DNA of 64,000 nt from Opitutaceae bacterium (GTDB taxonomy: Bacteria; Verrucomicrobiota; Verrucomicrobiia; Opitutales; Opitutaceae), in NCBI GenBank assembly GCA_965279695.1, contig OZ257259.1:3724531-3788530 (forward strand), in the 5' to 3' direction. Below the pieces are notes generated by a model. The model ran no database searches. It was given only the letters and a program-made list of their open reading frames with translations, and had not been told where the DNA came from. Positions 2,806 to 61,705 of this stretch are shown piece after piece; the stretch's first letter is position 1; every line of letters starts with the position of its first letter. A program made the translations under genes and the position numbers.

Positions 2806-2823
2806 GGCGAAAAAAGAAATCGG

Positions 2824-6869: not shown

Positions 6870-6888
6870 GACCTTTGCGCCGGCGATG

Positions 6889-8139: not shown

Positions 8140-8144
8140 GTGGC

Positions 8145-10307: not shown

Positions 10308-10543
10308 GGTGGGGAGAAAGCGGGGAAACGACCGGTGGAAGCCGCAGACAAACGCACTTCGTATTTCGGTATACCAAACTTTCCAACCAAGCCCCTTGTC
10401 AATGCATTTTCGGGCCATTTTCCCTGCTTCCACCTAAGAGTTTCGATCGGACGACCGACGTAAGATTGGAATACCAATTATCGAAATCGGAACCAAATCC
10501 GGTCTTTTCATTGCCGGAAGTGTCGTGTTGGATTCGACCCGTC

Positions 10544-11284: not shown

Positions 11285-11368
11285 GCGCCGGCGGTAGCGG
11301 CGGGCGTCCCTGCCCGCCGATGGTGCGCGCGGGCCCCCGCCTGAAACGGCGGGCAGAGACGCCCGCCG

Positions 11369-12262: not shown

Positions 12263-12293
12263 GCGGGCGAGGAGAAGCGAACGGGCGGGGCGG

Positions 12294-13978
12294 TCACGCC
12301 CAAAGTTTTTTCTGCAAATCGGCGAACCGGCCGACGACCGGGCTCTGCAACGGGTGTTTCCAGCCGCTGACGCGTTGGCGGGCACCGACCCAGACTTCGC
12401 GGATCGCGCGCGGATTGGAGCCGAAGACGACGGCACCGAGCAGGCCTTCCGGCGAGGCGCCGACGATGGACGGATCGTAGATGTTTACGGTGAAGAAATC
12501 CGCGGGCCGGCCGACCTCGAGCGTGCCACCCGGTGCGCCGAGACTGCGGGCGCCCGTGACGGTCGCTGCGTGGAAAAACGCGGTCGCGAGATCCGCGGGA
12601 AACGCGCCGGGGCGTTTGCGATCGGAGCGGAGCTGAAACTCCAAAAGGCGCGCGTCGTCGAGCACGTTGGTCTGGTGCTGGCCGTCGGTGCCGAGGGCGA
12701 GTGCCACGCCCGCCGCGAGCAACTTGGCCGTCGGCAACACGCCTTCGCCCGCGGACATTTCCGAGGCGGGGCACGCGCAGACTGTCACGCGCGCGGTGCC
12801 GAGCACGCGAATATCGTCGTCGCTCAGGTGCGCGCCGTGCACGGCGGTGAAGCGTTTGTCGAGGAGGCCGTGTTCGGCGAGGAGCGCGGCGGGCGAGCGG
12901 CCGTATTCGGCAACGCAGGACGCGTGCTCGGCGGCGGTTTCCCCGAGCTGGAGATGCACGCGGCAACGTTTCGCGTGCGCGTAGGCCGAGATGGCTTTGA
13001 GCGCGTCGATCGGCACGGCGCCAAGGCTGTGCGGCGCGACGCCGACCCACACGTCGTCACCGGGGTAGTTTTTTTCGACGTGGGCAAAGAGCAGATCGGT
13101 CGAGCGCGTGAAGGCTTCGACGCTAGCCGAGAGGTAACGCGGCGACGCCGAACCCACGGGCGAACCAAAACCGGCACGCAGGGTGGCGCCGTTGAGCAAC
13201 GCGATGCGGATGCCGACATCGTGTGCCGCGCGCAGGACGGCGTGCGCCATCGCGCCGGCTTCGGGCAGCGGCGTGCCATCGGCCGCGTGGTGAAGGTAGT
13301 GGCATTCGCCGACCGTCGTGATGCCGGCGAGGAGCATCTCCATGAACGCCTCGCGCGCGGCGTCGTAGACATCCTCGTCGGAGAGACGCGCCAGCACTTT
13401 GTCATGGAGCTCGCGGGCGTTGCCGAGCGCGTCGCGGTCGGCGTGGGCTTTCAGTTCGAGGCGGCCGCGGAAGATGCGGTGCCAAGCGTGCGAGTGAGAA
13501 TTCACGAGGCCCGGGAGCGCGGCCTGGCCGGGGAGGCGTTTCGCCATTTCGAGATCGGCGGGTTCGCGGGAGAATCGCGTGATGCGTCCCGCGGCATCCA
13601 CGAAAAACGCGAGGCCGCTCTCGAACTTGTCGCCGGTGTAAACGCAGTCGGGCAGCCAGCCGAGTTCGCGCGGCGGCGCGGGCGGAGCCGGCGGTTTCGG
13701 GGGCGGCGGAGGTTGGGGCGCGGGCGCTGGACCGGCAGGGCGCGGCTGGCCGGGATTCTGGCCGGGGCCGCGGCTGGAATCGCGACCGGAATCACGGCGG
13801 GGATCGCGGCGCGGGTCTCGCCGCGGGTCGGAGTTTTGCTGCTGTGGGCCGCCGGGGCCGCGATTCGGGCCGGGACCGCGCGACGGACCGGGACCGCGTT
13901 GCGGGCCAGGCTGACGCGAGGGGCCGGGTTGACGTTGGGGGTTGGACGCGGCGGGGCCGCGACCATCGCGGGAGTTCA
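12294..13978 (-). CDS. Metal-dependent amidohydrolase (deaminase/HutF-like family) with ~110-aa disordered PG/RG/PRRD-repeat N-terminal extension
   Basis: The catalytic HxH motif is VNSHSHAWH, and the amidohydrolase core is ...GTDGQHQTNV.... There is no alternative start codon between MNSRDG (13978) and the catalytic core. The N-terminus is composed only of P, G, R, Q, S, D and N, including DPRRDPRRDPRRDSGRDSS. Confidence 0.65.
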
Positions 13979-14040
13979 TCGGGTTTTGCAAGAGGACCAG
14001 CACACGCGAGGACGCGGCGCGGTCAATGCCGCGGGTGAGT

Positions 14041-15039
14041 TCATGCGGCGGCCGCGAGGCGGCGAACGGGGCACGGCTCGGCGGCCGTGGCGACGATGTG
14101 TTCGTGGAGGCGGGCGTCGATATTGCGTCCGCAGATCGGCACGACGGCGGTGCGCGCGGAGATCTTTCCGGCGAGCACGGCCGCGAGCGCGGTCGCTCCG
14201 GCGCCTTCCGCCGTGATACCGGCGCGGCGCGTGAGTGTGGCGATCGCGGCTTCGCTGACCGTGACCACGTCGTCGACGAAGGGTGCGGCGAGGGCGAACG
14301 TGTTTGCGCCGACGCGCGCGACCGCGAGGCCGTCGGCGAGCGTGGGCGCGAGGGCGGCGGGCGCGGGGCCGCCGTGGAGATAAGCGGCGACGAAACCGGC
14401 CGCGTGCGCGGGCTCGACGGCAATCACGCGCACGTCGGGGCGCAGGGATTTCACGGCGGTGATCGTGCCGGCGAGCAGACCGCCGCCGCCGACTGGGATG
14501 ACAAGGGTGTCGAGGTGCGGCGTTTGCTCGAGGATTTCGAGGGCGAGGGTGCCCTGGCCGGCGATGACGTTGAGATCGTCGAAGGGATGCACAAGCGTCG
14601 CGCCGGTCGCGGCGGAGATCTGCTGCGCGTGGGTGTGGGCTTGTTCGAAGTTTTCGCCGTGCACCACGACGGCGGCGCCGAGACCGCGACAACGGTTGAT
14701 CTTCACGGCCGGGGCGGTCGCGGGGACGACGACGGTGACGTGCACGCCGAGTTGCGCGCCGTGGTAGGCGAGGCCGAGCGCGTGGTTGCCAGCCGAAGCG
14801 GCTACGACGCCGTGGGCGCGTTGCTCAGCGGTGAGACAGAGGAGCGCGTGCCGCGCGCCGCGCTCTTTGAACGAGCCGGTGCGCTGGAGATCGTCGCGTT
14901 TCAACCAGAGCTCCATGCCGACAATCTCCGAGAGCGCCGGTGCGATGAGGCACGGCGTGAGTCGAAGCCCGGTCGCGAGGCGACGGCGGGCGGCTACTAC
15001 ATCAGCGAGGCTGAGGGCCGGGAGGGTGGTGGTGTTCAT
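14041..15039 (-). CDS. Threonine ammonia-lyase / threonine dehydratase (PLP-dependent, short form)
   Basis: It has the PLP-lysine motif TGSFKERGA, a glycine-rich loop GGGGL, and is 332 aa long. Confidence 0.8.
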   Translation of the reverse strand: MNTTTLPALSLADVVAARRRLATGLRLTPCLIAPALSEIVGMELWLKRDDLQRTGSFKERGARHALLCLTAEQRAHGVVAASAGNHALGLAYHGAQLGVHVTVVVPATAPAVKINRCRGLGAAVVVHGENFEQAHTHAQQISAATGATLVHPFDDLNVIAGQGTLALEILEQTPHLDTLVIPVGGGGLLAGTITAVKSLRPDVRVIAVEPAHAAGFVAAYLHGGPAPAALAPTLADGLAVARVGANTFALAAPFVDDVVTVSEAAIATLTRRAGITAEGAGATALAAVLAGKISARTAVVPICGRNIDARLHEHIVATAAEPCPVRRLAAAA

Positions 15040-30560: not shown

Positions 30561-31048
30561 CCCCCGCTCCCGGCCACTCCGCCTGCATTCGACGCGACTC
30601 GTCGATTCCAGCGTCGAACTCACCATTTCTTCTTCGCGCGTTCGATTCCCCACCACATCACAAGGCATAGCAGTCATCTGGGCCGGCTATCGCGAGTTAC
30701 GCGGCCTACGTAGCGGCGGATCTTGCGCGTCCGCCGTTCCGCCGCATTCTCCATCTCGTTCTTTGGATACGCACGCCTAAGAGACGCCGCTTCCTCGGCG
30801 TTTTCACGGGGGACCCACATTTCCGTCACGCACTCTTGCGCGGCGGACGGGGCGAACGGACGCAGGCAACTGCGCCCAAGGTGACTTCCTAGCACCGAGC
30901 CCGTCAGCTAACCTCGTCGGCAATGGGAAGGGTGATCCACTGCGCGCCAGCTCGGGCTGCGCGTCACGGTCGCTCCACTACATCCGCACCGTCGTGCGCG
31001 CTTGCCCCAACCATGCGCGCCTGGCGGGGCATTTCGGAGTCCTCCACC

Positions 31049-32989
31049 ATGTCCGCTTCCTTCGCTTCCGCCCTCGCCTCCGCAGGTTCGCTCTGCGCGC
31101 TCCTGCTTCTCGTCGCCGCGAGTCTCGTGCTCAAAGGCCTCGCCCTTCAGCCACGCTCGCTCGTCTCCCGGCTCATCCTCGGCGGCATATCGCTGGCCCT
31201 TTTGCTCACGGCCTTTATCGTCGCCGATGGCTGGCTCACGCGCGCCGTGTTGTTCGTCTTCGGCGTCATCTTCGCGCCGCTGCTCTACGGCGTCGTCATC
31301 ATTCGCGAGGACCAGGTCGGCGTCGTCATCAAGAAATTCGCCCGCCGTAATCTCCCGCCCGGCGAACTCATCGCACTGCACGGCGAGGCCGGCTACCAGG
31401 CCGACACGCTCCCGCCCGGTCTGCACTTTGGCTACGGCTTCTGGCAATTCCGCGTCGCCAAATCCCCCATGGTCATCGTGCCGCAGGGCGAGATCGCCTG
31501 CGTCGTCTCCGCCGCCGGCGCGCAGATCCCACCCGAGCGTCTCCTCGCGAAGGTCATCGCGTGTGATAATTTCCAGGACGCCCGCGCCTTCCTCACCTCC
31601 GGTGGCGAAAAGGGCCGCCAGCTCGGCATTCTCACTGCCGGCAGTTACCGCATCAACCCGGCCCTCTTCACTGTCATCACCGCCGACCACGCTCACGATC
31701 ACGGGATGATTTCCGAACAGCTCGCCGTCACGCGCATCCAGCCCGACATGGTCGGCATCGTCACCACCCTCGACGGCCGTCCCATCGATCCGGGCGATAT
31801 CGCCGGCTCGCTCATCCACGACCACGACAACTTCCAAAACGCCCAATCCTTCCTCGCCGACGGCGGCCGCCGTGGCCTCCAGGAGCAAGTCCTCCTCTCC
31901 GGCGCCTGGAATCTCAACCCGTGGTTCGCCTCCGTCGAATCCGTCCCGATGCTCAACATCCCCATCGGCTCAGTCGGCGTGGTGATCTCCTTTGTCGGCC
32001 TCGCCCACGAAGATATCAGCGGTGCCGCGTTTAAACACGGTGACCTCGTCAACGTCGGCCACAAGGGCGTCTGGGTCACGCCGCTCAATCCCGGCAAGCA
32101 TCCGATCAACACTCGCATCATGCGCGTCGAACTCGTGCCCACCACCAACATCGTCCTCAACTGGGCCAACCGCTCCGAGGCGCACCACTACGACGAGAAA
32201 CTCAACTCGATAACCGTGCGCTCCAAAGACGGCTTTGCCTTCAATCTCGATGTATCCCAACTCATCCACGTCGGCGCCCTCGATGCGCCGAAAGTCATCT
32301 CGCGCCTCGGCTCGATGCAAAATCTCGTCGACCACGCGTTGCAGCCGATCGTCGGAAATTATTTCCGCAACTCCGCGCAGCACCACACCGTCCTCGATTT
32401 CCTCAACGCCCGCAGCGACCGCCAGGTCGAGGCCGCCGCCCACATCCGCACCGCCCTCGCCGCCTACGACGTGCAGGCCATCGACACGCTCATCGGCGAC
32501 ATCACGCCGCCCATCGAACTGATGAAAACTCAGACCGACCGCAAAATCGCCGAGGAGGAAAAGAAAACCTATGAGACCCAGGAGGCCGCCCAACGCCAGC
32601 GCCAGGAACTCGTGAAGGCCACCGCCCTCGCCAACATCCAGCAGCAGATGGTCGACGCCGACCAGGGCGTGCGCATCGCCGAACTCCACGCCCAGGCCGC
32701 CATTCGCTCCGCGAGCGGTGAAGCCGAGTCCACTAAACTTCGCGCTCTCGGCGAAGCCGACGCCATCCGCGCGACCGGTAACGCGAAAGCCGAAGCCTAC
32801 CGCGCCGGCGTCGAGTCTCTCGGTGGCGCCAACTACACCGTCATGCAGCTTACGCAGACGCTCGCCGACAAAAACATCCGCCTCGTTCCCGACGTCAGCG
32901 TCACCGGCGCCCAAGGCGGCAACGGTCTCCTCGACTCGATGCTCGCCCTTCTCGTCCGCGAGAAAGCCGACACGCACAAAGCCGCCTAA
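31049..32989 (+). CDS. Flotillin / SPFH (band-7) family membrane protein, YqiK-like
   Basis: It has an N-terminal TM helix and an SPFH domain (REDQVGVVIKKF...). The internal flotillin repeats are DNFQDARAFLTSGGEKGRQ... and DNFQNAQSFLADGGRRGLQ.... The C-terminus is coiled-coil, rich in A/E/Q. The start is moved to ATG 31049. Confidence 0.75.
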   Translation: MSASFASALASAGSLCALLLLVAASLVLKGLALQPRSLVSRLILGGISLALLLTAFIVADGWLTRAVLFVFGVIFAPLLYGVVIIREDQVGVVIKKFARRNLPPGELIALHGEAGYQADTLPPGLHFGYGFWQFRVAKSPMVIVPQGEIACVVSAAGAQIPPERLLAKVIACDNFQDARAFLTSGGEKGRQLGILTAGSYRINPALFTVITADHAHDHGMISEQLAVTRIQPDMVGIVTTLDGRPIDPGDIAGSLIHDHDNFQNAQSFLADGGRRGLQEQVLLSGAWNLNPWFASVESVPMLNIPIGSVGVVISFVGLAHEDISGAAFKHGDLVNVGHKGVWVTPLNPGKHPINTRIMRVELVPTTNIVLNWANRSEAHHYDEKLNSITVRSKDGFAFNLDVSQLIHVGALDAPKVISRLGSMQNLVDHALQPIVGNYFRNSAQHHTVLDFLNARSDRQVEAAAHIRTALAAYDVQAIDTLIGDITPPIELMKTQTDRKIAEEEKKTYETQEAAQRQRQELVKATALANIQQQMVDADQGVRIAELHAQAAIRSASGEAESTKLRALGEADAIRATGNAKAEAYRAGVESLGGANYTVMQLTQTLADKNIRLVPDVSVTGAQGGNGLLDSMLALLVREKADTHKAA

Positions 32990-50435: not shown

Positions 50436-51191
50436 CTACTCACCCGCCGCCACCATCGCTCCGGGGAGGCGCGGCTTTAGATCGGGCCAGTAGAGCCGCC
50501 CCACCGGCAGGTCTTTGGCCAACCCGTGCACTTGCAGCAAAACGGACTTCTGCACATCGCGCCGAAACCCGGTCAGGCGCGCGAGATTCACAATCACCGC
50601 GCGGTGCACGCGCATGAACTGCGTCGTCGGGAGAATTTCCTCCCACGCTTTCAAGCTGCGCCGCACGAGCACGCTGCTGCCGTCGGCGAGGTGCACGAGC
50701 GAGTAGTTCTCCTCCGCCTCGATCGCGCTCAAATCCATGATCGGGGCGAACCTCGCCGAGGAACCCGAGCTGAGATGGATGATATCGTCGGGGCGCAGTG
50801 CCATGCCCGTCTCGGCCGGCGGCGCACTCTCGTCCTGCCCGGCCGGTGGCTCCAACCGCGTGAGCGCCCGCGCCAGCCGCTCGGCCTTCACGGGCTTGAG
50901 CAGGTAGTCGAGAGCGTTGACCTCAAACGCGCGCACCGCGTGCTCGTTGAACGCCGTCACAAAAATAATTTTCGCGCCGGCTTTCACGTTTGGCACCAGA
51001 TCGAACCCAGTGCCGCCGATGATCTGGATATCGAGAAACACGAGGCCGTAGTCGGCCTCGGCGAGCAGCGCGCGCGCGGATTTCACCGTCGCCGCTTCGC
51101 CGACGATTTCGATCTCCGGATGCGCGGCGAGCATCGCGCGCATATCAGTGCGGGCGGTTTTCTCGTCGTCGATGAGGAGCGCGCGGATCAT
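50436..51191 (-). CDS. LytTR-family response regulator (REC + LytTR DNA-binding domain)
   Basis: The REC domain is MIRALLIDDEKTARTDMRAMLAAHPEIEIVGEA...FLDIQI. It has a C-terminal LytTR domain. The start ATG overlaps the upstream kinase stop (ATGA). Confidence 0.85.
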   Translation of the reverse strand: MIRALLIDDEKTARTDMRAMLAAHPEIEIVGEAATVKSARALLAEADYGLVFLDIQIIGGTGFDLVPNVKAGAKIIFVTAFNEHAVRAFEVNALDYLLKPVKAERLARALTRLEPPAGQDESAPPAETGMALRPDDIIHLSSGSSARFAPIMDLSAIEAEENYSLVHLADGSSVLVRRSLKAWEEILPTTQFMRVHRAVIVNLARLTGFRRDVQKSVLLQVHGLAKDLPVGRLYWPDLKPRLPGAMVAAGE

Positions 51192-54100
51192 TTCGCAAGG
51201 GTGGCGGACTTCAGCTCTAGGCGCACGCGCACCCAGCCGTCGACTACGGAGTGCGTGAACACATGCGCATCCGGATAGTGGCGACGCAGCCGTTCGCGCA
51301 GATTGTCGTGACCGATGCCCGTCGAGGGAATCCCCGGCCGCGAGCCGCGCTCGACCCACGTGCCGGTGTTCGAAATTTCAAACACGAGCGCGTTTTCGCC
51401 CGCGCCGGACAGGCGCTGTGCGGAGATTTTCAGGCCGAGCGTATCTTCACTCGTGGCCTGGCCGTATTTGAGCGCGTTCTCCACGAGCGGCAGCAGCAGC
51501 AGCCGCGGCATGAGCACGCCATCGAGCGACCCATCGACGTTGAACTCCACGCTGAGCAACTCGCCCATGCGCGTCTGCTCGATGTCCAGATACGCGCGCA
51601 GCATGGCAATTTCCTCGCCCACCGTCGTGCGCTCCTCGGCTTTGCGGCCCGTGAGCGTGAGCCGGCAAAAATCCGCGAGCCGATCGAGCGTGTCGCGCGC
51701 CGAGCCCAGCGCCGGCGGGATCTGCGAGCGGATCGACGTGAGCGAGTTGAAGAGAAAGTGCGGGTTGAGCTGATAACGCAGCACGTCGAGCTGCGCTTTT
51801 TCCGCAGCGAGGCGCGCCGTGATTTTCTCGTCCAGCTCCAGTTTATGGAGACGCGCGAGTTCGCCGTTCTGCCGGCGCAGATCGTCTGTGCGAGTCGCGA
51901 CGATTTTTTCGAGCTGCTCGTTTTTCTTCCGCAGAGCGCGCGTGCGCAGCCGCACCGAACCGAAAATCGTCAGGCCCAGCATCGCCGCGTAGCCGCCATA
52001 CGCCCACCACGTCCGCCACCACGGCGGCAAAATCGTAAATGCCAGCGTCGCCGGTGCACTCAGGTGGCCGTCGATATCGCGGGCCTGCACTTCGAAGCGG
52101 TAGCGGCCGGTATCAAGCCGGGGAAACTCGCGCCGCCGCTCAAGGTCCCACGTCGACCACGCGCCTTCCTCGCCGACGAGCCGGGAGCGGTATCTTACGG
52201 CGTGGTGCGGGGCAAATCGCGGCGCCATAAAGCGGAATTCCACCGAGCGGCGATCATAGGACAGTGCGCCACCATCGCGAAGGCCGGAGACCGGCGACCA
52301 CACCGAGGCGGCGTAGCCAACCGGTGGAGTCAACGCGCGCGTGACGTCCACTCGCACGACTCCGGTGGTGCCGGCGACCCACAGCACGCGCCCGTCGGGC
52401 CCCGGCTCTTCATGAAAACACGTCGCCGAAGTCAAAAGCTGCTTCACGCTTTGCGGCAGGGTTTGGATGCCGCCGCCGCGCGCGAACCGATGGACGCGCG
52501 ATTCGCTGAGCGATGTCTTGAACGAATTCGCCACCCAGAGCGCTTCGGGAGAGTTCGCCCCGATGAAATTGCCGCCAAACTTATAGGGGCCCGGCATCGC
52601 GTCCACGCCGCGCAACGGCACGAATTTTCGGACCGCCGGATCGAACTCCAAGAGCGTCGGGCTCACCGACATCGTGAACACGAGCTGTTCACCCCACCGG
52701 ACCACGCGAGCGGAGGTGGGGTGGCCGTCGCCGGGAGGAAAAAACTCAATCGCCGGCGTAATGCCCGTGGCGTTGTCCGCAGTCCCGGGGGGCAGCACGA
52801 CGCGGGCAAACCCGCGGGTTGTGGTCGAGACCCAGATCGCACCGTCGGGCGCCTCGGCCAATCCTTGCAGGCGCTCGTTGTCGAGCTCCTTGACGCGAAA
52901 GGCGCTTTGCCAGCCGGCGACGTCCCGGCGCAGCACAGTGAGACCGATGGTTTTGGCGAGCCACAGCCACGAAGGGTGGGCCGCCGAGTGGTGCAGTGCC
53001 ACGACAGTGCCGCGGTCGGGCCGCTTCGACGACGTCAGCTCGCCGCCCGCATTCAAGTGGAAGATTTTCTCGACCGTGGCCGCCCAAAGACCCGTTTCGT
53101 CGGCGTGGAGCGAGAGAAAGGAGCCCTCGATCACCTGTTCCCATTTCGCCGGTTGCGTCGGGCCATCCGCCGGGCGCAGTCGATAGATGCCCCGGCCCGT
53201 GGAGGCGTAGAGTGAACCGGCATGCCGGCACAATTTTTGGACCGTTCCCTTTGGCAGGCCATCCGCTTCGTCGAACACCGTCACGGCTGGCCCCCAGCCC
53301 ACGTGGGCGAGGCCGCGGTTCAGGCCCAGCCAATATCCGCCCGTGCGTTCTGGGGTGAGGCTGACGACGGAGTCAGCCGGTAAGCCGTTGGTGTCGTCGA
53401 GGACTTTGAGAAAGCGCCCGTCGGCGGCCAGCAACCAAAGGCCCTTACGGCCGATGATCTTGAGCGCCAAAGATCCGTCCTGTAACTGCCAGATCCGGTT
53501 AATCCTGAGTCCGCTCAGCACGGCATCGAGTCCCGTGGGCCAAGGTGCGATTCTTCCGTCCCGCAGCGTGTGAAACTGCGCCCGTTCCGTGCCGATCAGG
53601 ACCGCTCCGTCCGGCGTTTTGCCCATGAGCAGCACCAGGTTTTTCAAGAACAGGGGATCGCGATGAGTGACCGTGAAGCGGGTCCCTTCGAAGAGCATGA
53701 GCGGTCGCTCTCTGGCCTGGAAATAGAGCTGGCCGTCGACGACATGGAACAGCCCCGGGTCTTCCAGTTTCTGCACCGTGAGTTTGCCATTTCGCCAGAC
53801 CACCAGGCTCGTGGGCGTCACCGCGTAGATCGTGTCGCCGTGGGCGATCATATGGTTGATACTTTTGAAATCGCGCTCCGGCTCGGCGAGTTGCTCCACC
53901 AGCGACTCGAACGTGTGGGTTCCATCCCGTTGGTCCCGCAATGCTCCAAAGACGCCGGTGCCTCCGACATAGACGACCCCGTCTTGCCCCAACACCAGCT
54001 GGCGGCAGCCAACTTGGGACTTCGGAATCCGGCGCCACGTCGCACCATCGAAGGAGATCAGACCCGGGCCGTCGCAAAAGAAGAGCACTCCCGACTTATC

Positions 54101-54271
54101 CTGGACGACGGCCATGATCTGGGCGCTGGTGCCATTGAAGTCCTGCTGGGAGTAGGTTTTCACCACGAGCCGGCCGAGCTCGTTGGCCACGGGAGCGGAC
54201 TCCGTGCGGCCCACCGCGGCGCAGCCCGCAAGGCAGATGACGAGAACGAGACGGAGCAGCGTGCGTCTCAT
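51188..54271 (-). CDS. Sensor histidine kinase: periplasmic beta-propeller repeats + Y_Y_Y domain + TM + LytS-type His_kinase (PF06580-like) + HATPase
   Basis: It has a signal peptide. The Y_Y_Y segment is VRYRSRLVGEEGAWSTWD...RYRFEVQARD. The TM helix is WWAYGGYAAMLGLTIFG. There is a coiled coil. The LytS-type H-box is LRYQLNPHFLFNSLTSI. The C-terminus is ATPase. Confidence 0.85.
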   Translation of the reverse strand: MRRTLLRLVLVICLAGCAAVGRTESAPVANELGRLVVKTYSQQDFNGTSAQIMAVVQDKSGVLFFCDGPGLISFDGATWRRIPKSQVGCRQLVLGQDGVVYVGGTGVFGALRDQRDGTHTFESLVEQLAEPERDFKSINHMIAHGDTIYAVTPTSLVVWRNGKLTVQKLEDPGLFHVVDGQLYFQARERPLMLFEGTRFTVTHRDPLFLKNLVLLMGKTPDGAVLIGTERAQFHTLRDGRIAPWPTGLDAVLSGLRINRIWQLQDGSLALKIIGRKGLWLLAADGRFLKVLDDTNGLPADSVVSLTPERTGGYWLGLNRGLAHVGWGPAVTVFDEADGLPKGTVQKLCRHAGSLYASTGRGIYRLRPADGPTQPAKWEQVIEGSFLSLHADETGLWAATVEKIFHLNAGGELTSSKRPDRGTVVALHHSAAHPSWLWLAKTIGLTVLRRDVAGWQSAFRVKELDNERLQGLAEAPDGAIWVSTTTRGFARVVLPPGTADNATGITPAIEFFPPGDGHPTSARVVRWGEQLVFTMSVSPTLLEFDPAVRKFVPLRGVDAMPGPYKFGGNFIGANSPEALWVANSFKTSLSESRVHRFARGGGIQTLPQSVKQLLTSATCFHEEPGPDGRVLWVAGTTGVVRVDVTRALTPPVGYAASVWSPVSGLRDGGALSYDRRSVEFRFMAPRFAPHHAVRYRSRLVGEEGAWSTWDLERRREFPRLDTGRYRFEVQARDIDGHLSAPATLAFTILPPWWRTWWAYGGYAAMLGLTIFGSVRLRTRALRKKNEQLEKIVATRTDDLRRQNGELARLHKLELDEKITARLAAEKAQLDVLRYQLNPHFLFNSLTSIRSQIPPALGSARDTLDRLADFCRLTLTGRKAEERTTVGEEIAMLRAYLDIEQTRMGELLSVEFNVDGSLDGVLMPRLLLLPLVENALKYGQATSEDTLGLKISAQRLSGAGENALVFEISNTGTWVERGSRPGIPSTGIGHDNLRERLRRHYPDAHVFTHSVVDGWVRVRLELKSATLAK

Positions 54272-57200
54272 GAGGAACGAGGCGGCATGCGCAACGCTAG
54301 GCGCACGCGCACCCAGCCGTCCATCGTCGAGTGGGTAAACGCATGCGCATCCGGATAGTGGCGACGCAGCCGTTCGCGGAGATTATCGTGCCCGATGCCC
54401 GTCGAGGGAATCCCCGGCCGCGAGCCGCGCTCCACCCACGTGCCGGTATTCGAAATTTCAAACACGAGCGCGTTTTCACCCGCGTCGGGCAGGCGCTGCG
54501 CGGAAATTTTTAGGGCCAACATCTCTTCGCTCGTGGCCTGGCCGTATTTGAGCGCGTTTTCCACCAGCGGCAGCAGCAGTAGCCGTGGCATGAACACACC
54601 GTCGAGCGACGTATCGACGGCAAACTCCACGCTGAGCAACTCACCCATGCGCGTCTGCTCGATGTCCAGATACGCGCGCAGCATGGCAATTTCCTCGCCC
54701 ACCGTCGTGCGCTCTTCGGCTTTGCGACCGGTCAGCGTGAGTCGGCAAAAATCTGCGAGGCGGTCGAGTGTGTCGCGCGCCGAGCCGAGCGCAGGAGGGA
54801 TCTGCGAGCGGATCGACGTGAGCGAGTTGAAGAGAAAGTGCGGGTTGAGCTGATAACGCAGCACGTCGAGCTGCGCTTTTTCCGCAGCGAGGCGCGCCGT
54901 GATTTTTTCGTCGAGCTCGAGTTTGTGCAGACGCGCGAGCTCGCCGTTTTGCCGGCGGAGATCGTCCGTGCGCGTCGCGACGATTTTTTCGAGCTGCTCG
55001 TTTTTCTTCTGCAACGCGCGGGTGCGCAGGCGCGCGAAGCCGAGGAGAGCGGCGCCGAAAGCGAGCGTGTAGCCGCCGTAGGCCCACCCGGTGCGCCACC
55101 ACGGCGGCAACACGGAGAAAGCGATCGTCGCCGATGTGCCGATACGTCCATCGGCGTCGCGCGGCTGCACTTCAAACGTGTAAGCGCCTTCGCGGAGATT
55201 GGTAAACGAACGCCGATGTTCCCGCGACCAAGCAGTCCATTCGTCTTCGAAACCGACGAGCCGCGTGCGGTAGTCGGGCGCCTCGTAGGTCGGCGCGGTG
55301 GGCGCGACAAAATCGAAATCGACCGAGTTGCGCGCCGCGGGCTGCACGGCGCCCGGGGCGAGTTCGCGGCCGTTGACGAGCGCGGCGAGCGACGGCGACG
55401 ACGCAAACGCCCGCGCAAGCTCGACGCGCACGACGCCGTCGGTGCCGCCGATCCAGAGCACGCCCTCCCCGACGTCTTCGTAGAGCGCCGAATTTTCGCG
55501 CAGAGCGCTGCTGATGGGATAAGGGAGCGTTTCGAGTTTTTCGCCACTGAGGCGATGGACTCCGGGACCGGGTGGAGTTTCGCGGTCGTGGTCGAGCGTG
55601 AGCACCCAGAGGTGGCGCGGGTTTTGGGGTGCCAGGGCGACGGCGTTGAGTTCGAGCGTAGCGGGCAGCGGCACCAAGCCCGTGAACGGCGCGAAGGCCC
55701 GCTTTGCTTCGTCGAAGCGGAGGATCTCGTGGCTATTGCCGAGGAGAAAATAGGTCTCGTCGCGCCACGTGCCGAGCCGGGCGCGGCTGCGTTTCATGTC
55801 TTCCCCAGGCCCGGCGAGAAAACGTTCCACCTTGGCCCCAGTGGCAGGGGCGGACGTTCCGGGGGTGATTTGGAAATATCCCTGGCTATCGATCCCCACC
55901 CAAAGCTGGCCGGTCGGCGTTTCGGAAATCGCGCGCACCATGCCGGACAAACCGGGCACCAAACCTTCATTGCGCCAGCCGGTCGGTGTTTCGCGAAAGG
56001 CGCGGAGGCCGTCGGCGTGTCCGATCCAGCGCAGGCTCGGGTCGCGCTTCGAACGCAACATCGCGTAAGCGAGCGTCGGCAAAGGCGTGACGGTGGTGAA
56101 ACCCGTCGGCGTGAGGCGGATGATTTTGTGATCGGCGACACCGTAGAGATCGGCGCCCTCGGAAATGAGGGCGAAGACTCCGCCAGTAAACACGCGCTCG
56201 AATTTCGCCGGTGTCTGCGGCGCGCGCCCGGGGAGCAGGCGAAAGAGGCCCGTGCTATTGCCGACGTAAAGCGTGCCGTCGTGACGCGCGATCGCGCTGA
56301 CAATGGCCCGGTCCAATCCGTTGGCGGTTTGAAATAACGTCGTAGCGGCAGGCCAATCGACGTAGGCCGTGCCGTAGTCGAGACACAGCCAGAGTCCGCC
56401 GTGGCGGCTGGCGGCCAGACCGTAGACGACGCTGTTGGGCAGGCCCGTGGTGGCGTCGAGATAGTTGAGAAACGCGCCGTCCGCGCCGATGAGCGCGAGA
56501 CCGCCGCCGGACGCGGCTGCAAACGCGACGGCGACCGAACCGTCGGCGAGGCGAAGTGCGCGGTAGATTTGTTTCGTTTTAAACAACTCGTCGATCGCCG
56601 TGACCCAACGCGTGGCGCGGCCGGTGGCGAGGTCGAGATGGGAGAGTCCGTGCTTGGCCGAGGCCACGAGGAGAGTGCCGGGAGTGGGGCCGGGGCCGAG
56701 GTAGCGGCTGATATCGCCGAGGAAAATCGGATCTTCGGATACGCGCACGAGGCGGTCGCCTTCGATGCGCTGGAGCGGAGAGTTGGGCGAATGGAGAAAA
56801 ACCTGATCGGCGACGACATCGAGTCGGCCCACGGCATGGGGGATATGCGCAAAGCGGCCGGCCCGGAAAATCAGGAGATGTTTCCCCGTCGTGAAATAAA
56901 CCGCGTCGCCGTGCGCGACGATTTGGAAGACCTCTTGGAAATCACGCGCGGCCTCGGGCAGGTCGCCGAGGAGAGAGACGTGTTCGTGGCGTCCGCCCGG
57001 CAACGGACGGAGCCAGCCAAGATCGCCGAGCGAACCGACGTAAATGCGACCGTCGGCGGCGAGTGCGACCGCCCGCGTGACAGGGGAGAAGCGCTCGGCG
57101 CGAGTGATGCGCGAGGTAGCTCCATCATAGGTGACGATGCCGGCGGAGTTGGCGAAGTGCACACGGCCGGCGGCATCCTCCACGGCCGCCCAGTTCTGGG

Positions 57201-57342
57201 TGGCTGCATTGGTGGGCGCGGGCTCGAAGGCACGGATCGCCGGGCGCCCATGCTCGGACGTCGTGCGAGGCACCGCCGCGCACACCTGCCACGCCGCGAA
57301 GAAAAACGCGGCATGCAGCAAGTGGGGAATTCGGCGTCGCAT
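54268..57342 (-). CDS. Sensor histidine kinase paralog (propeller + Y_Y_Y + LytS-type kinase core); C-terminal ~265 aa ~95% identical to downstream kinase
   Basis: It has the same domain order as the downstream kinase. The start is moved to the signal-peptide Met MRRRIPHLLHAAFFFAAWQVCAA (57342). The stop overlaps the downstream kinase start (ATGA). Confidence 0.85.
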   Translation of the reverse strand: MRRRIPHLLHAAFFFAAWQVCAAVPRTTSEHGRPAIRAFEPAPTNAATQNWAAVEDAAGRVHFANSAGIVTYDGATSRITRAERFSPVTRAVALAADGRIYVGSLGDLGWLRPLPGGRHEHVSLLGDLPEAARDFQEVFQIVAHGDAVYFTTGKHLLIFRAGRFAHIPHAVGRLDVVADQVFLHSPNSPLQRIEGDRLVRVSEDPIFLGDISRYLGPGPTPGTLLVASAKHGLSHLDLATGRATRWVTAIDELFKTKQIYRALRLADGSVAVAFAAASGGGLALIGADGAFLNYLDATTGLPNSVVYGLAASRHGGLWLCLDYGTAYVDWPAATTLFQTANGLDRAIVSAIARHDGTLYVGNSTGLFRLLPGRAPQTPAKFERVFTGGVFALISEGADLYGVADHKIIRLTPTGFTTVTPLPTLAYAMLRSKRDPSLRWIGHADGLRAFRETPTGWRNEGLVPGLSGMVRAISETPTGQLWVGIDSQGYFQITPGTSAPATGAKVERFLAGPGEDMKRSRARLGTWRDETYFLLGNSHEILRFDEAKRAFAPFTGLVPLPATLELNAVALAPQNPRHLWVLTLDHDRETPPGPGVHRLSGEKLETLPYPISSALRENSALYEDVGEGVLWIGGTDGVVRVELARAFASSPSLAALVNGRELAPGAVQPAARNSVDFDFVAPTAPTYEAPDYRTRLVGFEDEWTAWSREHRRSFTNLREGAYTFEVQPRDADGRIGTSATIAFSVLPPWWRTGWAYGGYTLAFGAALLGFARLRTRALQKKNEQLEKIVATRTDDLRRQNGELARLHKLELDEKITARLAAEKAQLDVLRYQLNPHFLFNSLTSIRSQIPPALGSARDTLDRLADFCRLTLTGRKAEERTTVGEEIAMLRAYLDIEQTRMGELLSVEFAVDTSLDGVFMPRLLLLPLVENALKYGQATSEEMLALKISAQRLPDAGENALVFEISNTGTWVERGSRPGIPSTGIGHDNLRERLRRHYPDAHAFTHSTMDGWVRVRLALRMPPRSS

Positions 57343-57413
57343 GTCTGCCTGAGGCTGGGCGCCACCGAAAAGCCGCCAAGGAATTTTCCGTGAGCAGTTT
57401 CCGCAGGGGGACG

Positions 57414-58640
57414 CTACGGAGCGGCGGCGACCGCCAGTTGCCCGCAGCCCGCAGCGATATCGATACCGCGTCGCTGGCGCACCGTGCTCGGAATCTGGAA
57501 TTCGGAGGAGAGGATGTGTTGGAAGGCCCGCGCGGCGGCGGTGTGCGTCGGTGCGCCGTCGTAGCCGGCCGTGGGGTTGAGCGGGATGAGGTTCACCTGC
57601 GCCGGCAGGCCGTGGAGCAAATTGCCGACCGCGCGCGCCGTCTCGACGGAATCGTTTTTCCCTTCGATGAGCGTCCACTCGTAGAAAATTTTCCGGCCAG
57701 TCGCTTCGCTGTAGGTGCGGCACGCAGCCAAGAGTTCATCGAGCGGCCACTTTTTCGCCGCGGGCACGAGCGCCGCGCGCTCCGCCTGCGTCGCGGCGTG
57801 CAGCGAGACGGCGAGGTGAAACGCGCGCTTCTCCTGCGCCAGCCGCAAAATCCCCGGCACCACGCCCACCGTGCTGACCGTGATGCGCTCGCCACCGAGG
57901 GCGAGTCCCGCCTCGTCGCGGAGGATATCAACCGCGTGCATCACCGCGTCGTAATTATGGAGCGGCTCGCCCATCCCCATCAGGACAATGTTGCGTAGTC
58001 GCTCGCCGGCTTTGGCCGCCTCGGCGCGCGCGCGCGCTTGTTCGGCCGATGACGTGTAACCCAATAGGTTACACGTTGGCGGATTTGCCGAGGGCGCGGT
58101 GGCTTCGGGCGCATCCGGGGACGTGTAACCTATTGGGTTACACGTGGTGGGTTCGGACGGGCGAAGGACGGGGGTGCGGGAGTCGCGCAGCGCGCGGGCG
58201 ACGTGCACGGCCTGCGCGACGATTTCGCCTGGCGTGAGGTGCCGCGTGTAGCCCATTTGGCCGGTCGCGCAAAACACACAGCCCATCGCACAGCCCACCT
58301 GCGAACTCACGCACGCGGTGACGCGGCCTTTGTAGCGCATGAGCACGGTCTCGATGCGTTCGCCGTCGGCGAGACGAAGGAGATATTTGCGCGTGAAGCC
58401 GTCGGTGGAATCGGTCTCGAGCGCGGTCGGCAGGACGCCGAGGGAGGTTTCCGCGAGGAGGCGGGTGCGAACCTTCGGCGGGAGGTCCGGCATCGCCGCT
58501 TCGGAAAACGACTCGGCGAGCCCGAGGTAGAGGTAGTTCCACAACGTCGCCGCGTGCACCGGCGACAATTCCCACGAAACCAACAGCGCGCGCAGTTGCT
58601 CGCGGGTGAGGTCGTAGAGATTGAGCGGCGCGGCGGACAT
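57414..58640 (-). CDS. rlmN: 23S rRNA (adenine2503-C2)-methyltransferase RlmN (radical SAM), carrying an in-frame ~50-aa insertion
   Basis: The radical-SAM cluster motif is CAMGCVFCATG. The conserved motifs are MGMGEPLHN and GVVPGI. The insertion lies between EIVAQAVHVARAL and RNIVLMGMGEP and encodes TCNPIGYTS...TCNLLGYTS. Confidence 0.85.
   Translation of the reverse strand: MSAAPLNLYDLTREQLRALLVSWELSPVHAATLWNYLYLGLAESFSEAAMPDLPPKVRTRLLAETSLGVLPTALETDSTDGFTRKYLLRLADGERIETVLMRYKGRVTACVSSQVGCAMGCVFCATGQMGYTRHLTPGEIVAQAVHVARALRDSRTPVLRPSEPTTCNPIGYTSPDAPEATAPSANPPTCNLLGYTSSAEQARARAEAAKAGERLRNIVLMGMGEPLHNYDAVMHAVDILRDEAGLALGGERITVSTVGVVPGILRLAQEKRAFHLAVSLHAATQAERAALVPAAKKWPLDELLAACRTYSEATGRKIFYEWTLIEGKNDSVETARAVGNLLHGLPAQVNLIPLNPTAGYDGAPTHTAAARAFQHILSSEFQIPSTVRQRRGIDIAAGCGQLAVAAAP
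58053..58145. repeat. Two inverted copies of a 23-bp palindromic hairpin (cgtgtaacc-caata-ggttacacg at 58053-58075; exact reverse complement at 58122-58144) inside rlmN coding sequence
   Basis: I read these directly from the sequence. Each copy has a 9-bp perfect stem. The second copy equals the reverse complement of the first, so the loop is flipped. Both are in frame, each encoding TCN(P/L)(I/L)GYTS. Confidence 0.85.
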
Positions 58641-58668
58641 GACGGGGCGAAGCGACGCGCGGGCGCGC

Positions 58669-59487
58669 TCAGCGCAGCGACGCGAGGGCGGCGGGGATGG
58701 GGATGGACTGGCGGCGGCGGTCGAGGAAGACGTTGATTTCGGTGTAGCCGGCTTCTTGCAGCGTGCGGAGGGCGCTGGCGTAGCCGTCGGCGACGCGGCC
58801 GGGGCGGTGGGCGTCGGAGCCGAGGACGACGGGGATGCCGCGGGCCTGCATCAGGCGAAGGATGCTCGGGCTCGGGTTGATTTCGCGGATGGCTTTGTTC
58901 GCACCGCTGGTGTTCAGCTCCATCGCCACGCCGGTGGCGGCGATGCGGTCGAGGGCACGCTCGATGAACGGCACGATGCGCTCGAAGTGCCACTCGGTGG
59001 GCGACTCGTTTTTGATGAGATCGGGATGCGCGAGGGTGTCGTAGAGGCCGGTCTCGGCGGAGCGGGCGAGGTGGTCGAAGTAGGTTTGTTGATACTCGAA
59101 CCAGTTGCCGTGGAAGAAGCGCGCGCGGTAGTCAGGGACCTGCGGGTGGACGGAGCCGAGCACGTGGTGGAGCGGGAAGCGGGCGTGGAGTTTTTCGAGC
59201 CACGGTTCGACGCCGGGATAATAATCGCTCTCCAGGCCGAGGCGCACGTCGAGGCGGCCGGCGAATTGTTCGCGGGTGGCGGCGACGAGCTCGACGTAGT
59301 GGTCGTATTGCTCGGGCGTCATGCGCACGGCGTGCGAGATGCGGTCGGGCAGCGGGCAGTGGCAGGTGAAGATGATGCCCTTCAGGCCGCGCGCGAGGGC
59401 CTCGGCGGCGTATTCCACGGGTTCACCGTGCGCGTGTTTGCACAGGGGGGTGTGGCAGTGGGATTCGTAGAGGAGGCGGGTGGGCAC
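58669..59487 (-). CDS. PHP-family histidinol-phosphatase-like metal-dependent phosphoesterase
   Basis: The N-terminal PHP motif is YESHCHTPLCKHAHG. Metal-binding His and Asp residues are distributed through the sequence. It has a GTG start. Confidence 0.7.
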   Translation of the reverse strand: MPTRLLYESHCHTPLCKHAHGEPVEYAAEALARGLKGIIFTCHCPLPDRISHAVRMTPEQYDHYVELVAATREQFAGRLDVRLGLESDYYPGVEPWLEKLHARFPLHHVLGSVHPQVPDYRARFFHGNWFEYQQTYFDHLARSAETGLYDTLAHPDLIKNESPTEWHFERIVPFIERALDRIAATGVAMELNTSGANKAIREINPSPSILRLMQARGIPVVLGSDAHRPGRVADGYASALRTLQEAGYTEINVFLDRRRQSIPIPAALASLR

Positions 59488-59604: not shown

Positions 59605-61032
59605 TCAGAAGAACGTGTAGTATTTCTGCTCGGCAAGGCGCTGGATGAGGAGCGCGAGCTCCATCGCGTGGTAGTCGCCCCACATCGATGATTCGCCGTT
59701 CGGGACCTTTTGGCCCTTCGCAACGTGGTCCCAGCCGTTCGGACGGTGGTAGACACTGTGGAGGAGGAGACCCTGGTGTTTCTTGTCTGTCGAAAGATAG
59801 GGTTCGTCGAAGAGCGTGTCGGCGATGGTGAGGCCGGCTTGGAAGTATTTTTTGCCGGCGGCGGTGTCGCCTTTCGCGGTGAGGTAGGTGCCGAGGCGGA
59901 GGAAGCCTTGCGCGGCGATGGCGGCGGCGGAGCTGTCGACGGGTTCGTGGGCGTTGTAGGGATCGGCGTTTTTCTTGGTGATGTCGCCGAGCTTGTGGCT
60001 GTTGAGCGCCATCGAATCCCAGTAGGGCACGCCGTCTTTGGCAGAGTAGCCGTCGATGTAATAGTCGCTCGTGGCGCGGGCGGTCTCGAGGAAGAGATCC
60101 GTCACGGCGCGGCGGCCGCCGACGGCGTCGAGGTCGGTGCCTTTGACCGTATCCAGGAACTCGAGCTGCTCGGCGTAGCCGGCGATGATCCAGGCGGCGC
60201 CGCGGGTCCAGGTGGTGAACGGCGAGTAACCCTGCTGCGAGGACGGGCAACGGAACTGGCCGTCGTTGCGATTGAAGACCGACTCGTGCGCGACGCGGCC
60301 GCGGACGTCGTAGCTGTCGCGACCGGTGCCGAAGAAGACGTTGAAACGCGCGGTGGTGGCGGCGTGCTCGATGGCGCGGTGGAGGAGATTGGTGGGCTTG
60401 TCGCCCTCACCCATCAGCGCGTGGCCGAGCTGGTGCGCGACGACGAGGGAACGCATGGAGCGGATCGTGTCGGCGAAGAGGGACTGCGGGCCGTTGAAGG
60501 AGTAGACGTAGCCGCTGGGGGCGACGCCACCGGATGCGGGCGAGCCGCCCGCGCTCCCGGGGGACCACGGGGCTTTGGCGTTGGTGGTCGCGTAGCGCGC
60601 GGCTTGGACGGCGCCGGAAACTTTGAGGGCGATTTCGGTGAAGTTCAGCTCGTCCTGGTTGTGCGGGATTTTTCCCTCGAGGATCAGGCGGCGGAGATTG
60701 CCGTAGGTGGAGACGTTGTTGAAGCCGTGGTCGTGCACGCCGACGTGCGAGACGTGGGAGGCCATGAGTTTCACGGTCTTCTCGCGGGCGAGCTTGAGCG
60801 AGGAGGCGTCGCCCGTGGCGTCGAAGTGGAGGAAGCCCATGCCGAACTGGAAGCCCTGGGTCCACTCGGTCCAGCCGCGCGAGGTGTATTTGCCGGCGAC
60901 GGTGAAGACGGGCGTGCCGTTGGCGGGATCCCAAGCGGCGTCGATGGCGCGGATCTTCTGGCCGGCGAGTTCAAAGACGCGCGCGGTTTTTTTGGTGAGG
61001 CGCTGGGGGGTGAGCGTGGCGTTGATTTTCAT
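59605..61032 (-). CDS. Glycoside hydrolase family 88-like (unsaturated glucuronyl hydrolase-type alpha/alpha6 barrel), cytoplasmic
   Basis: The GH88/GH105-like segments are ...GYSPFTTWTRGAAWIIAGYAEQ... and ...WGDYHAMELALL.... There is no signal peptide. The start is moved to MKINATL (61032). Confidence 0.6.
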   Translation of the reverse strand: MKINATLTPQRLTKKTARVFELAGQKIRAIDAAWDPANGTPVFTVAGKYTSRGWTEWTQGFQFGMGFLHFDATGDASSLKLAREKTVKLMASHVSHVGVHDHGFNNVSTYGNLRRLILEGKIPHNQDELNFTEIALKVSGAVQAARYATTNAKAPWSPGSAGGSPASGGVAPSGYVYSFNGPQSLFADTIRSMRSLVVAHQLGHALMGEGDKPTNLLHRAIEHAATTARFNVFFGTGRDSYDVRGRVAHESVFNRNDGQFRCPSSQQGYSPFTTWTRGAAWIIAGYAEQLEFLDTVKGTDLDAVGGRRAVTDLFLETARATSDYYIDGYSAKDGVPYWDSMALNSHKLGDITKKNADPYNAHEPVDSSAAAIAAQGFLRLGTYLTAKGDTAAGKKYFQAGLTIADTLFDEPYLSTDKKHQGLLLHSVYHRPNGWDHVAKGQKVPNGESSMWGDYHAMELALLIQRLAEQKYYTFF

Positions 61033-61299
61033 GGCGTGGGAAGGTGAGGGAAGGCGGAGAAAGAACCACGAAACGCGGGAAACACACGAACGATTTTTAC
61101 GACGTGGGCGGACGGTCAATCGGTGGGCCTGGCGCGCGGCCTGGGGCGCGGAGCAGAGGTCGCGCGGCGGTTACGAGACGATTACGCGGTGGAGCCTCTC
61201 GAAAATGGGCGCTTAAAAAAGCGCCCCTCCGGGTGGAGTGGGCGCTGGTGGCGCGGGTGCGAGGGATGGCCGGTGATTCTGCCCGGCGCGGCAGGACGA

Positions 61300-61557: not shown

Positions 61558-61705
61558 GGGGGACTAAAAGTGAGGCGGTGATGGGACGCTGAGGCGCGGC
61601 GGAAGTTTCGCAAGATTTGGGTGGAGACGGGCAGGGTGGGGGGCTGACGAACGAGAACGATTAAGAGAACGAGAACGACTCTGGGGGTGTGAAAGGAAGG
61701 GGGCG

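Follow-up and report, generated by a model that had tools for sequence, protein, structure and literature searches.

A tandem pair of propeller-type sensor histidine kinases with near-identical transmitters and a single LytTR regulator in an Opitutaceae bacterium: indications of selection and gene conversion

Gene layout and domain architecture

The analysis concerns a sensor-kinase operon at positions 50436 to 57342 of a 64,000-nucleotide (nt) stretch of contig OZ257259.1 from an Opitutaceae bacterium (GenBank assembly GCA_965279695.1). The whole stretch is referred to as the window; in comparisons, the window and its genome are designated W, and the loci or assemblies of relatives are given L-numbers. 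Three genes were found head to tail on the minus strand, with the upstream kinase (k2) followed by the downstream kinase (k1) and a response regulator:

54268..57342, minus strand: k2, a sensor histidine kinase of 1024 amino acids (aa), comprising a signal/anchor helix, a periplasmic sensor with double beta-propeller and Y_Y_Y domain, a transmembrane (TM) helix, a PF06580 dimerization and histidine phosphotransfer (DHp) domain and an ATPase domain (open reading frame and translation, Pfam)
51188..54271, minus strand: k1, a sensor histidine kinase of 1027 aa with the same architecture as k2 (open reading frame, Pfam, AlphaFold2, Foldseek)
50436..51191, minus strand: response regulator of 251 aa with receiver (REC) and LytTR DNA-binding domains (Pfam)

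At both junctions (k2/k1 and k1/regulator), stop and start codons overlap in an ATGA, as is evident from the junction sequence and as a previous sequence-only reading of this DNA had noted. Pfam searches identified Reg_prop, Y_Y_Y and His_kinase (PF06580) domains in both kinases, the latter with an E-value of 4.9e-19 and a score of 68.8 bits in each case (cut-off 25.2). The H-box NPHFLFN corresponds to residues 836-842 of k1 and 833-839 of k2, its histidine and first asparagine being invariant in an alignment of 13 sequences, and an N-box (LVENALKYG) and a G-box (STGIGHDNL) were found in k1 and k2 alike. Neither kinase gave a Pfam match to HisKA, Response_reg, HTH_AraC or the multi-TM 5TM-Lyt (LytS-YhcK) sensor domain, and no NCBIfam kinase model was matched by k1 or k2. 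The regulator scored above the Pfam cut-offs for both Response_reg (7.8e-18, 65.1 bits) and LytTR (1.9e-15, 57.3 bits); its best NCBIfam similarity was to BtsR/LytR, with scores well below the equivalog cut-offs.

A structural model of k1 was obtained with AlphaFold2, using a shallow alignment of 13 sequences (mean predicted local distance difference test score, pLDDT, 78). It consists of an N-terminal helix, an all-beta region extending to about residue 750, a long TM/linker helix, the DHp helices and an alpha/beta ATPase domain at residues 881-1020. In a Foldseek comparison with the PDB, the top 15 matches to this model were all periplasmic domains of BT4663, BT3049 and BT4673 (E 1e-29 to 1e-25). 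This result agrees with weak PDB sequence matches of k1 to 4a2l, 3v9f and 3ott, which were accompanied by a match to 6swj ('Histidine kinase', E 3e-9). The architecture proposed in the sequence-only reading (propeller, Y_Y_Y, TM helix and LytS-type core) is therefore considered correct, with Pfam, the AlphaFold2 model and Foldseek all backing it. The idea that k1 might be a lipoprotein was dropped, since the lipobox-like LAGC of its signal peptide is not conserved in the relative L001 (described below). No further copies of the transmitter or the regulator were found within the 64-kb window.

The shared transmitter block

The cytoplasmic halves of the two kinases contain a long repeat, whose copies and boundaries are as follows:

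51221..51940, minus strand: transmitter block of k1 (repeat copy 1), comprising juxtamembrane linker, DHp with H-box, and ATPase domain
54301..55020, minus strand: transmitter block of k2 (repeat copy 2), at an offset of +3080
51717..51826, minus strand (54797-54906 in k2): 110-nt tract identical in k1 and k2, the longest perfect run, with the H-box at 51746-51766
51947..52012, minus strand (55027-55092 in k2): TM helix of k1, which differs between the paralogues and marks the 5' boundary of the block (breakpoint map, model)
51188..51220, minus strand (54268-54300 in k2): diverged tail of k1, consisting of the last ~10 codons and the stop codon, which marks the 3' boundary of the block

The copies align without gaps over 720 nt at 91.1% nucleotide identity, with values of 82-100% in 50-nt windows and a background of 30% when the sensor halves are compared ungapped at the same offset. 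The identity of 93-100% over ~800 bp that had been read from the sequence (51188-52000) was thus too high and too long, as it amounts to 87.1% over those coordinates. The perfect identity noticed around NPHFLFN was borne out by the 110-nt tract, and the second-longest perfect run measures 71 nt (51564-51634). Codon-by-codon mapping placed the 5' edge of the block at the cytoplasmic end of the TM helix and its 3' edge 9-10 codons before the stop codon. The k1 tail overlaps the translation-initiation region of the regulator and the k2 tail precedes the k1 start. The two tails share 48% nucleotide identity, and their variable sites follow the orthologue pattern only. The sensor halves of k1 and k2 share 34-36% identity at the protein level with saturated synonymous divergence (dS >1.2), so that the divergence of the sensors and of the last codons was also described correctly before. 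The antisense hairpin observed at 51777 is duplicated at 54857 and is merely part of the repeat.

Differences between the two block copies are mostly silent: about 55 codons differ synonymously and about 13 non-synonymously, and the first ~130 codons show about 35 synonymous changes and not a single amino-acid change. The corresponding estimates (non-synonymous divergence, dN, 0.026; dS 0.31; dN/dS 0.08) are not what a very recent event would leave behind. At the protein level, the transmitters of k1 and k2 are 95% identical to each other, compared with 88-92% against those of L001. A homologue search with the transmitter alone returned short fragments only.

Relatives and synteny

When genome and metagenome contigs were scanned with k1, close loci were obtained from L001 and L002 only, followed by L003-L006, L079 and L080 at 44-55% identity. 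The closest relative is L002, a metagenome-assembled genome (MAG) labelled 'Opitutus sp. GAS368', with ~93% nucleotide identity over 14 kb. L001 is an Opitutae MAG with 81% nucleotide identity, and L159 and L160 are further assemblies of an L001-like organism. The k2-k1-regulator operon with the same overlaps is present in all four of these independent assemblies, and it measures 6907 nt in both W and L002, without indels. The more distant Opitutaceae locus L003 contains a different tandem kinase pair with a regulator; L005, L006, L079 and L080 each carry a single k2-type kinase with a regulator, and L004 has one kinase.

Two further observations were made in these comparisons. The contigs of L001, L159 and L160 all break off within the k2 sensor but not at the same point, with 798, 987 and 636 residues kept, respectively, which may reflect strain-level variability of this sensor. 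The synteny between W and L002 ends at 58641 (L002 5630), just upstream of the rlmN-like gene described below, and the genes for a PHP protein and a GH88-like protein that follow in W are absent there in L002.

Synonymous divergence and phylogeny of sensors and transmitters

The history of the two halves of the kinases was assessed by bootstrapped neighbour-joining trees and by dS. In the sensor tree, the k1 orthologues and the k2 orthologues each formed a group with 100% support, and the k2 sensor grouped with the single kinases of L006, L079 and L080 at 99.6%; the single kinase of L005 is a k2 sensor orthologue as well. Both sensors are under purifying selection, with dN/dS values of 0.11-0.17 between orthologues. 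In the transmitter tree, the four copies of W and L002 formed one clade with 100% support, also when third codon positions alone were used, and orthologue clades received 0%. Inside this clade, W_k1 paired with L002_k1 (90%) and W_k2 with L002_k2 (99%), which places the main homogenisation before the split of W and L002.

Transmitter dS was 0.31 between W_k1 and W_k2 and 0.45 between L002_k1 and L002_k2, close to the values for W and L002 orthologues (0.23-0.32). Any W copy differed from any L001 copy by 0.85-1.24 and from its own L001 orthologue by 0.85-0.98. At synonymous sites, the W paralogues are thus about three times closer to each other than either is to its own L001 orthologue. As a background, flanking genes of W and L002 gave dS values of 0.17-0.33, and the regulators of W and L001 differed by 1.18. 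The trees and dS values together indicate that a block-wide homogenisation took place after the L001 split, in the lineage from which W and L002 both descend. Because the paralogue dS of 0.31-0.45 compares with a W-L002 background of 0.17-0.33, this event is dated to about the time of the L002 split. Both W transmitters are nearer to L001_k2 (dS 0.85-0.88) than to L001_k1 (0.98-1.24), which hints, and is to be held loosely, at k2 having been the donor and k1 the recipient. An independent homogenisation in L001 and L003 is not claimed, given bootstrap values of 62.6% and 81.2% for all sites and of 51.4% and 48.2% for third positions.

A later tract and lineage mosaicism

Runs of agreement at polymorphic sites were analysed with a custom permutation test of the Sawyer type. 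W_k1 and W_k2 agree over 23 such sites at 51721-51826 (p = 0.0008, ~0.012 after correction for 15 pairs). Within the in-frame part of this tract (108 bases), the W copies are identical, the L002 orthologues show 6-7 synonymous differences and all other relatives 13-22, so that the identity in W cannot be due to constraint at the nucleotide level. The 110-nt H-box tract is therefore a probable later, small conversion restricted to the W lineage. A test of this kind, with GENECONV as the example, had been suggested for the locus in the sequence-only reading. Gene conversion of the transmitter, as proposed in the sequence-only reading, is upheld by the dS values (0.31 against 0.85-0.98), the incongruent trees (100%) and the 106-110-nt tract. 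That conversion should be ongoing is less well backed: one small later tract speaks for it, but the last block-wide event appears about as old as the L002 split.

Further mosaicism was found at the borders of the block. The TM helix is of type A in k1 and B in k2 of W, of type B' in k1 and A in k2 of L002, and of type A in both kinases of L001. The L002_k1 type resembles that of L003_kA, and L002_k2 has a k1-like sequence just before the TM helix. Moreover, W and L002 are ~99% identical from ~52050 to 54450, a stretch made up of the k1 sensor together with the final ~180 nt of k2, compared with ~92-93% in the surrounding 14-kb shared region. The pattern points to a recent between-lineage recombination (import or sweep) of the k1 sensor. 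The limits of the stretch lie within the k2 transmitter and at the k1 TM helix. Judging from these patterns, the locus is a recombination-prone mosaic rather than a simple duplicate.

Origin of the transmitter similarity

The explanation that we regard as probable is an old pair of sensor kinases acting on one LytTR regulator, whose transmitters have been kept alike by selection together with gene conversion. Most of the identity of the block at the protein level is due to family-wide purifying selection, since the transmitters are 75-88% identical at the amino-acid level across Opitutaceae relatives whose sensors share 33-60%, and dN/dS is about 0.06-0.08, with values of 0.05-0.09 within the block; the regulator, with 70-81% identity among relatives, is less conserved than the transmitter. 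These values, and the ~130 initial codons that have accumulated silent changes only, would equally suit an old duplication in which the block is just the most constrained domain and no conversion ever occurred. This alternative, which the sequence-only reading had itself put forward, is half correct at the protein level, where the 95% shared by k1 and k2 only modestly exceeds the 88-92% against L001, but breaks down at synonymous sites. Selection on the protein cannot bring the synonymous sites of paralogues three times closer than those of orthologues; moreover, trees from third positions still unite the W and L002 copies at 100%, and the tract that is identical in W shows 6-22 synonymous differences in the same codons of every other sequence. 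An account without conversion is thus improbable. A whole-gene tandem duplication of recent date, in which one sensor half then diverged very fast or was replaced and the transmitter was never homogenised, would conform to the finding that new histidine kinases mainly arise by lineage-specific expansion and N-terminal sensor shuffling (PMC1630713), and it has a counterpart in L093, where a kinase with a TPR sensor and one with a propeller sensor share a common transmitter (~90% aa, 85% nt) beside one LytTR regulator. However, both sensors are found in the same order and with the same ATGA junctions in L001, L159 and L160, with 100% orthologue support, and the pair must therefore be older than the similarity of its transmitters. 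The L001 outgroup has orthologous k1 and k2 sensors in place and transmitters that are not alike, and the k2 sensor has its orthologues in the single kinases of L006, L079, L080 and L005. The recent duplication inferred from the sequence alone consequently does not hold, the pair with its orthologous sensors predating the L001 split (regulator dS 1.18), and we see little prospect for this scenario; duplication and shuffling could nevertheless account for how the pair first arose, at a much earlier time.

An assembly error, with the repeat collapsed or joined chimerically when the metagenome-derived contigs were built, had been named in the sequence-only reading as a possible refutation and is very improbable. 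The locus does seem hard to assemble, as all three assemblies of the L001-like organism (3/3) break within k2. Yet the same arrangement recurs in the independent assemblies L002, L001, L159 and L160, with equal operon length and no indels in W and L002, and one independent assembly with an 8.86-Mb contig carries a protein reported to be 100% identical to k1. In addition, the copies differ at ~9% of sites in a codon-respecting pattern, and both open reading frames are intact. A further possibility concerns function rather than origin, namely that k1 and k2 form an obligate heterodimer and hence one composite sensor instead of two independent inputs. The DHp/coiled-coil region, which is the dimer interface of histidine kinases, is 100% identical over ~130 residues, the translational coupling of k2 and k1 favours equimolar synthesis, and, to judge from how PDB entries 4a2l and 4a2m are titled, sensors of the BT4663 type form dimers in the crystal. 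On the other hand, L005, L006, L079 and L080 have only one kinase, of the k2 type, beside the same regulator, so that a homodimer suffices in this family and an obligate heterodimer becomes less likely, and k1 and k2 differ strongly in their TM helices and periplasmic domains. We therefore consider an obligate heterodimer unlikely, though worth keeping in mind.

Several points weigh against the explanation by an old pair with selection and conversion. The exact pair is present only in W, L002 and the L001 group, and the number and direction of events are therefore poorly resolved. Where dS approaches 1, synonymous sites are almost saturated. The W and L002 transmitters, four copies in all, are nearly star-like, with many singleton differences that are clustered, which could be due to exchange with unsampled paralogues or strains. 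Between-lineage recombination clearly operates at the locus as well, so that part of the mosaicism is not due to intra-genomic conversion. The ATPase domain is covered by a HATPase_c match of 20.4 bits in k1, below the cut-off of 26.4, and is unreported for k2 in Pfam. Finally, the case for phosphotransfer to a common regulator is made by the operon structure and the identical DHp sequence only.

Proposed mode of action

In the scheme that we propose, an old tandem pair of BT4663-like propeller/Y_Y_Y kinases with PF06580 cores would share a transcript, and translational coupling, with one REC-LytTR regulator gene. The periplasmic sensors have diverged anciently and each is under purifying selection, so that presumably each recognises its own ligand. 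Because their fold is shared with BT4663-type sensors, the best guess for this ligand is a glycan fragment, which on this analogy is probably what is sensed. The transmitter, which begins at the cytoplasmic side of the TM helix and stops ~10 codons short of the end of the gene, is held near-identical by very strong family-wide purifying selection and by a second force, intra-locus conversion, which in this reading acted block-wide in the W/L002 ancestor and then in at least one ~110-nt tract in W. Conversion tracts end where homology ends, that is, at the TM helix and sensor on one side and at the tail overlapping the start region of the next gene on the other.

Over ~130 residues the two kinases are identical in the DHp surfaces by which a partner is selected and dimers are formed, and for this reason both kinases should phosphorylate or dephosphorylate the same LytTR regulator. 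Two inputs with one output, i.e. a branched pathway converging on a single LytTR regulator, would be a reasonable interpretation of these sequences. Both kinases may also form heterodimers, to which identical DHp helices would pose no barrier. Conversion and selection together would keep both kinases matched to one regulator.

It is conceivable, if doubtful, that the transmitter blocks moreover act as portable homology arms, with the sensor between them as an exchangeable cassette, and that the concerted evolution of the transmitters is itself selected for. This notion derives from the ~99% identity of the k1 sensor in W and L002, the reshuffled TM segments and the occurrence, in other phyla, of arrays that share transmitters among unrelated sensors (TPR, propeller, 7TMR-DISM). 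If true, sensors could be swapped, added and deleted on a fixed kinase-regulator chassis, possibly giving rise to heterodimeric sensors.

Comparison with known systems

The periplasmic part of k1 has the same fold as that of the Bacteroides hybrid two-component sensors BT4663, BT3049 and BT4673, with a double propeller, a Y_Y_Y Ig-like domain and one TM helix. The sequence identity is ~13-16%, however, and the core of k1 and k2 belongs to PF06580 and not to HisKA. Unlike the Bacteroides proteins, the two kinases lack a fused receiver or AraC domain and have a separate LytTR regulator, there is no adjacent polysaccharide utilization locus, and the host is a verrucomicrobium. With LytSR, BtsS/BtsR and YpdA/YpdB, the locus shares the PF06580 DHp, an NPHFLFN-type H-box, a putative GHKL ATPase domain and a REC-LytTR regulator encoded beside the kinase. 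Canonical LytS/BtsS members sense through a multi-TM 5TM-Lyt domain, in contrast to the ~720-aa periplasmic propeller sensor found here, and the locus differs from this class also in having two kinases per regulator.

Branched many-to-one phosphorelays are known from Vibrio, where LuxN, LuxQ and CqsS signal to LuxU, and from Bacillus, where KinA-E signal to Spo0F. As is presumed here, several sensors act on one output in these cases, the convergence at the present locus being suggested by its sequence organisation. The kinases of LuxU- and Spo0F-type systems are dispersed and their transmitters diverged, whereas here the kinases are arranged in tandem and translationally coupled, with transmitters that appear to have been homogenised by conversion.

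Concerted evolution of paralogues is known for tuf and rRNA operons. In such cases, as at the present locus, paralogues within a genome are closer to each other than to their orthologues and the identity is tract-like; the difference is that here the process would be segmental, affecting only the 720-nt transmitter of 3.1-kb signalling genes. A survey of long-lasting concerted evolution in prokaryotes listed 26 genes, none of them a kinase (PMC6053082). The lineage-specific expansion of histidine kinases with shuffling of sensor domains (Alm et al. 2006, PMC1630713) likewise yields neighbouring paralogues in which related kinase domains are joined to unrelated or strongly diverged sensors. In contrast to that process, the transmitter similarity described here is younger than the gene pair and seems to have been renewed by conversion rather than inherited; gene conversion is mentioned 0 times in the cited work.

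Similar arrays turned up among loci that had been fetched for other reasons. On the metagenome contig L093 (4852-11157), a PF06580 kinase with a TPR sensor and one with a propeller/Y_Y_Y sensor accompany one REC-LytTR regulator, with transmitters that are 85% (nt) or ~90% (aa) identical and sensors that are unrelated. L050 (Chitinophagaceae, 63-23310) comprises about nine HisKA kinases with TPR, propeller/Y_Y_Y or 7TMR-DISM sensors and transmitter blocks of 75-79% nucleotide identity, and L020 (Cytophagia, 62-15014) four HisKA kinases, three with propeller/Y_Y_Y sensors and one with a GAF sensor, whose transmitter blocks share 71-79% at the nucleotide level. Genes for PD-(D/E)XK nucleases are interspersed in the L020 array. 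All three arrays directly fit the known expansion of kinases with sensor shuffling (PMC1630713). The pattern is accordingly not unique, and the present locus is a clean example of a known pattern and not a new class of system. Its value lies in being a well-resolved natural case of bacterial multi-input signalling, in which the sensors evolve freely and the half that recognises the partner is held identical, contrary to the usual picture of duplicated kinases diverging into mutual insulation. Within the Verrucomicrobia, which have been little studied, it offers a straightforward case for examining how pathways converge, whether kinases heterodimerise and how modular their sensors are.

Genomic context and regulatory region

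The operon is preceded by the following features:

57343..57413, minus strand: 71-nt spacer between rlmN and k2, a candidate promoter/operator (alignment of seven loci)
57414..58640, minus strand: rlmN-like radical-SAM rRNA methyltransferase gene, a conserved upstream neighbour (Pfam; NCBIfam TIGR00048, 308.7 bits)
58669-59487: gene for a histidinol-phosphatase-like PHP protein, an upstream neighbour
59605-61119, minus strand: gene for a GH88-like protein of ~476-504 aa (weak PDB match to unsaturated glucuronyl hydrolases, 1vd5, E 5e-7)

These upstream neighbours are genes of a housekeeping type. The rlmN-like gene is syntenic with the kinase-regulator module in L002, L003, L006, L079 and L080, and the upstream gene order is kept in L003, L006 and L079 and in part in L080 and L005. 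The GH88-like protein, for which no Pfam or NCBIfam match was obtained, is also syntenic with the module and is 82-91% identical in distant Opitutaceae, compared with 72-76% for the rlmN product. This neighbour is the one lead as to possible targets. As speculation, it fits the analogy with BT4663, a sensor of heparin/heparan sulphate, since unsaturated glucuronyl saccharides are what GH88 enzymes hydrolyse. The GH88-like gene is separated from an RNase D gene by ~580 nt of non-coding sequence, in which GAACGAGAACGA occurs twice, 18 nt apart (61649-61678).

The genes downstream of the regulator converge on it and are not conserved, even in L001. They encode a GFO/IDH/MocA protein and an FAD-oxidoreductase/Golvesin protein in W and L002, DAHP synthase in L001 and L005, and a giant adhesin-like protein in L003. 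The adjacent carbohydrate-active genes, which the sequence-only reading had taken for the presumable targets of the regulator, are hence not supported as such, given this lack of conservation, the absence of the leader motif described below from the rest of the window and the negative search for direct repeats upstream of 48991.

In the spacer upstream of k2, the sequence CTTGGCG (57372-57380) is invariant in seven loci and lies ~35-45 nt before the k2 start codon. The spacer also holds a direct repeat, GCGGAAACT / CGGAAAATT, at 57380-57404, which is conserved in W, L002 and L003 with a spacing of 13-14 nt; in L006, L079 and L080, the first half of this repeat is found in inverted orientation. 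The composite leader motif GCGGAAACT-N5-CGGRAAATTCC occurs once in the window, with 0.01 chance matches expected, and CTTGGCGRC is not enriched there (3 occurrences compared with 2.7 expected). Typical LytTR sites consist of repeats ~21-22 nt apart. As its spacing is 13-14 nt, the leader repeat was not called a LytTR operator. A sigma-54 promoter reading of CTTGGCG was rejected by eye because of the wrong spacing to any GC element.

A search for direct repeats with 7-nt seeds covered the sequence upstream of 48991, the leader of k2 and the 3' end of the regulator gene and gave no result; a look for LytTR direct repeats upstream of 48991 had been suggested in the sequence-only reading. A scan of the 50.3-57.6 kb region yielded no sigma-70 promoters and no terminator-like sites above chance, and a scan against Rfam at gathering thresholds returned nothing in or near the operon. 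Elsewhere in the window, a c-di-AMP riboswitch (Rfam RF00379, 54.9 bits, E 5.5e-10) was identified at 30764-30937 on the plus strand, its 3' end overlapping the start of an open reading frame of 688 aa (30923-32989, plus strand).

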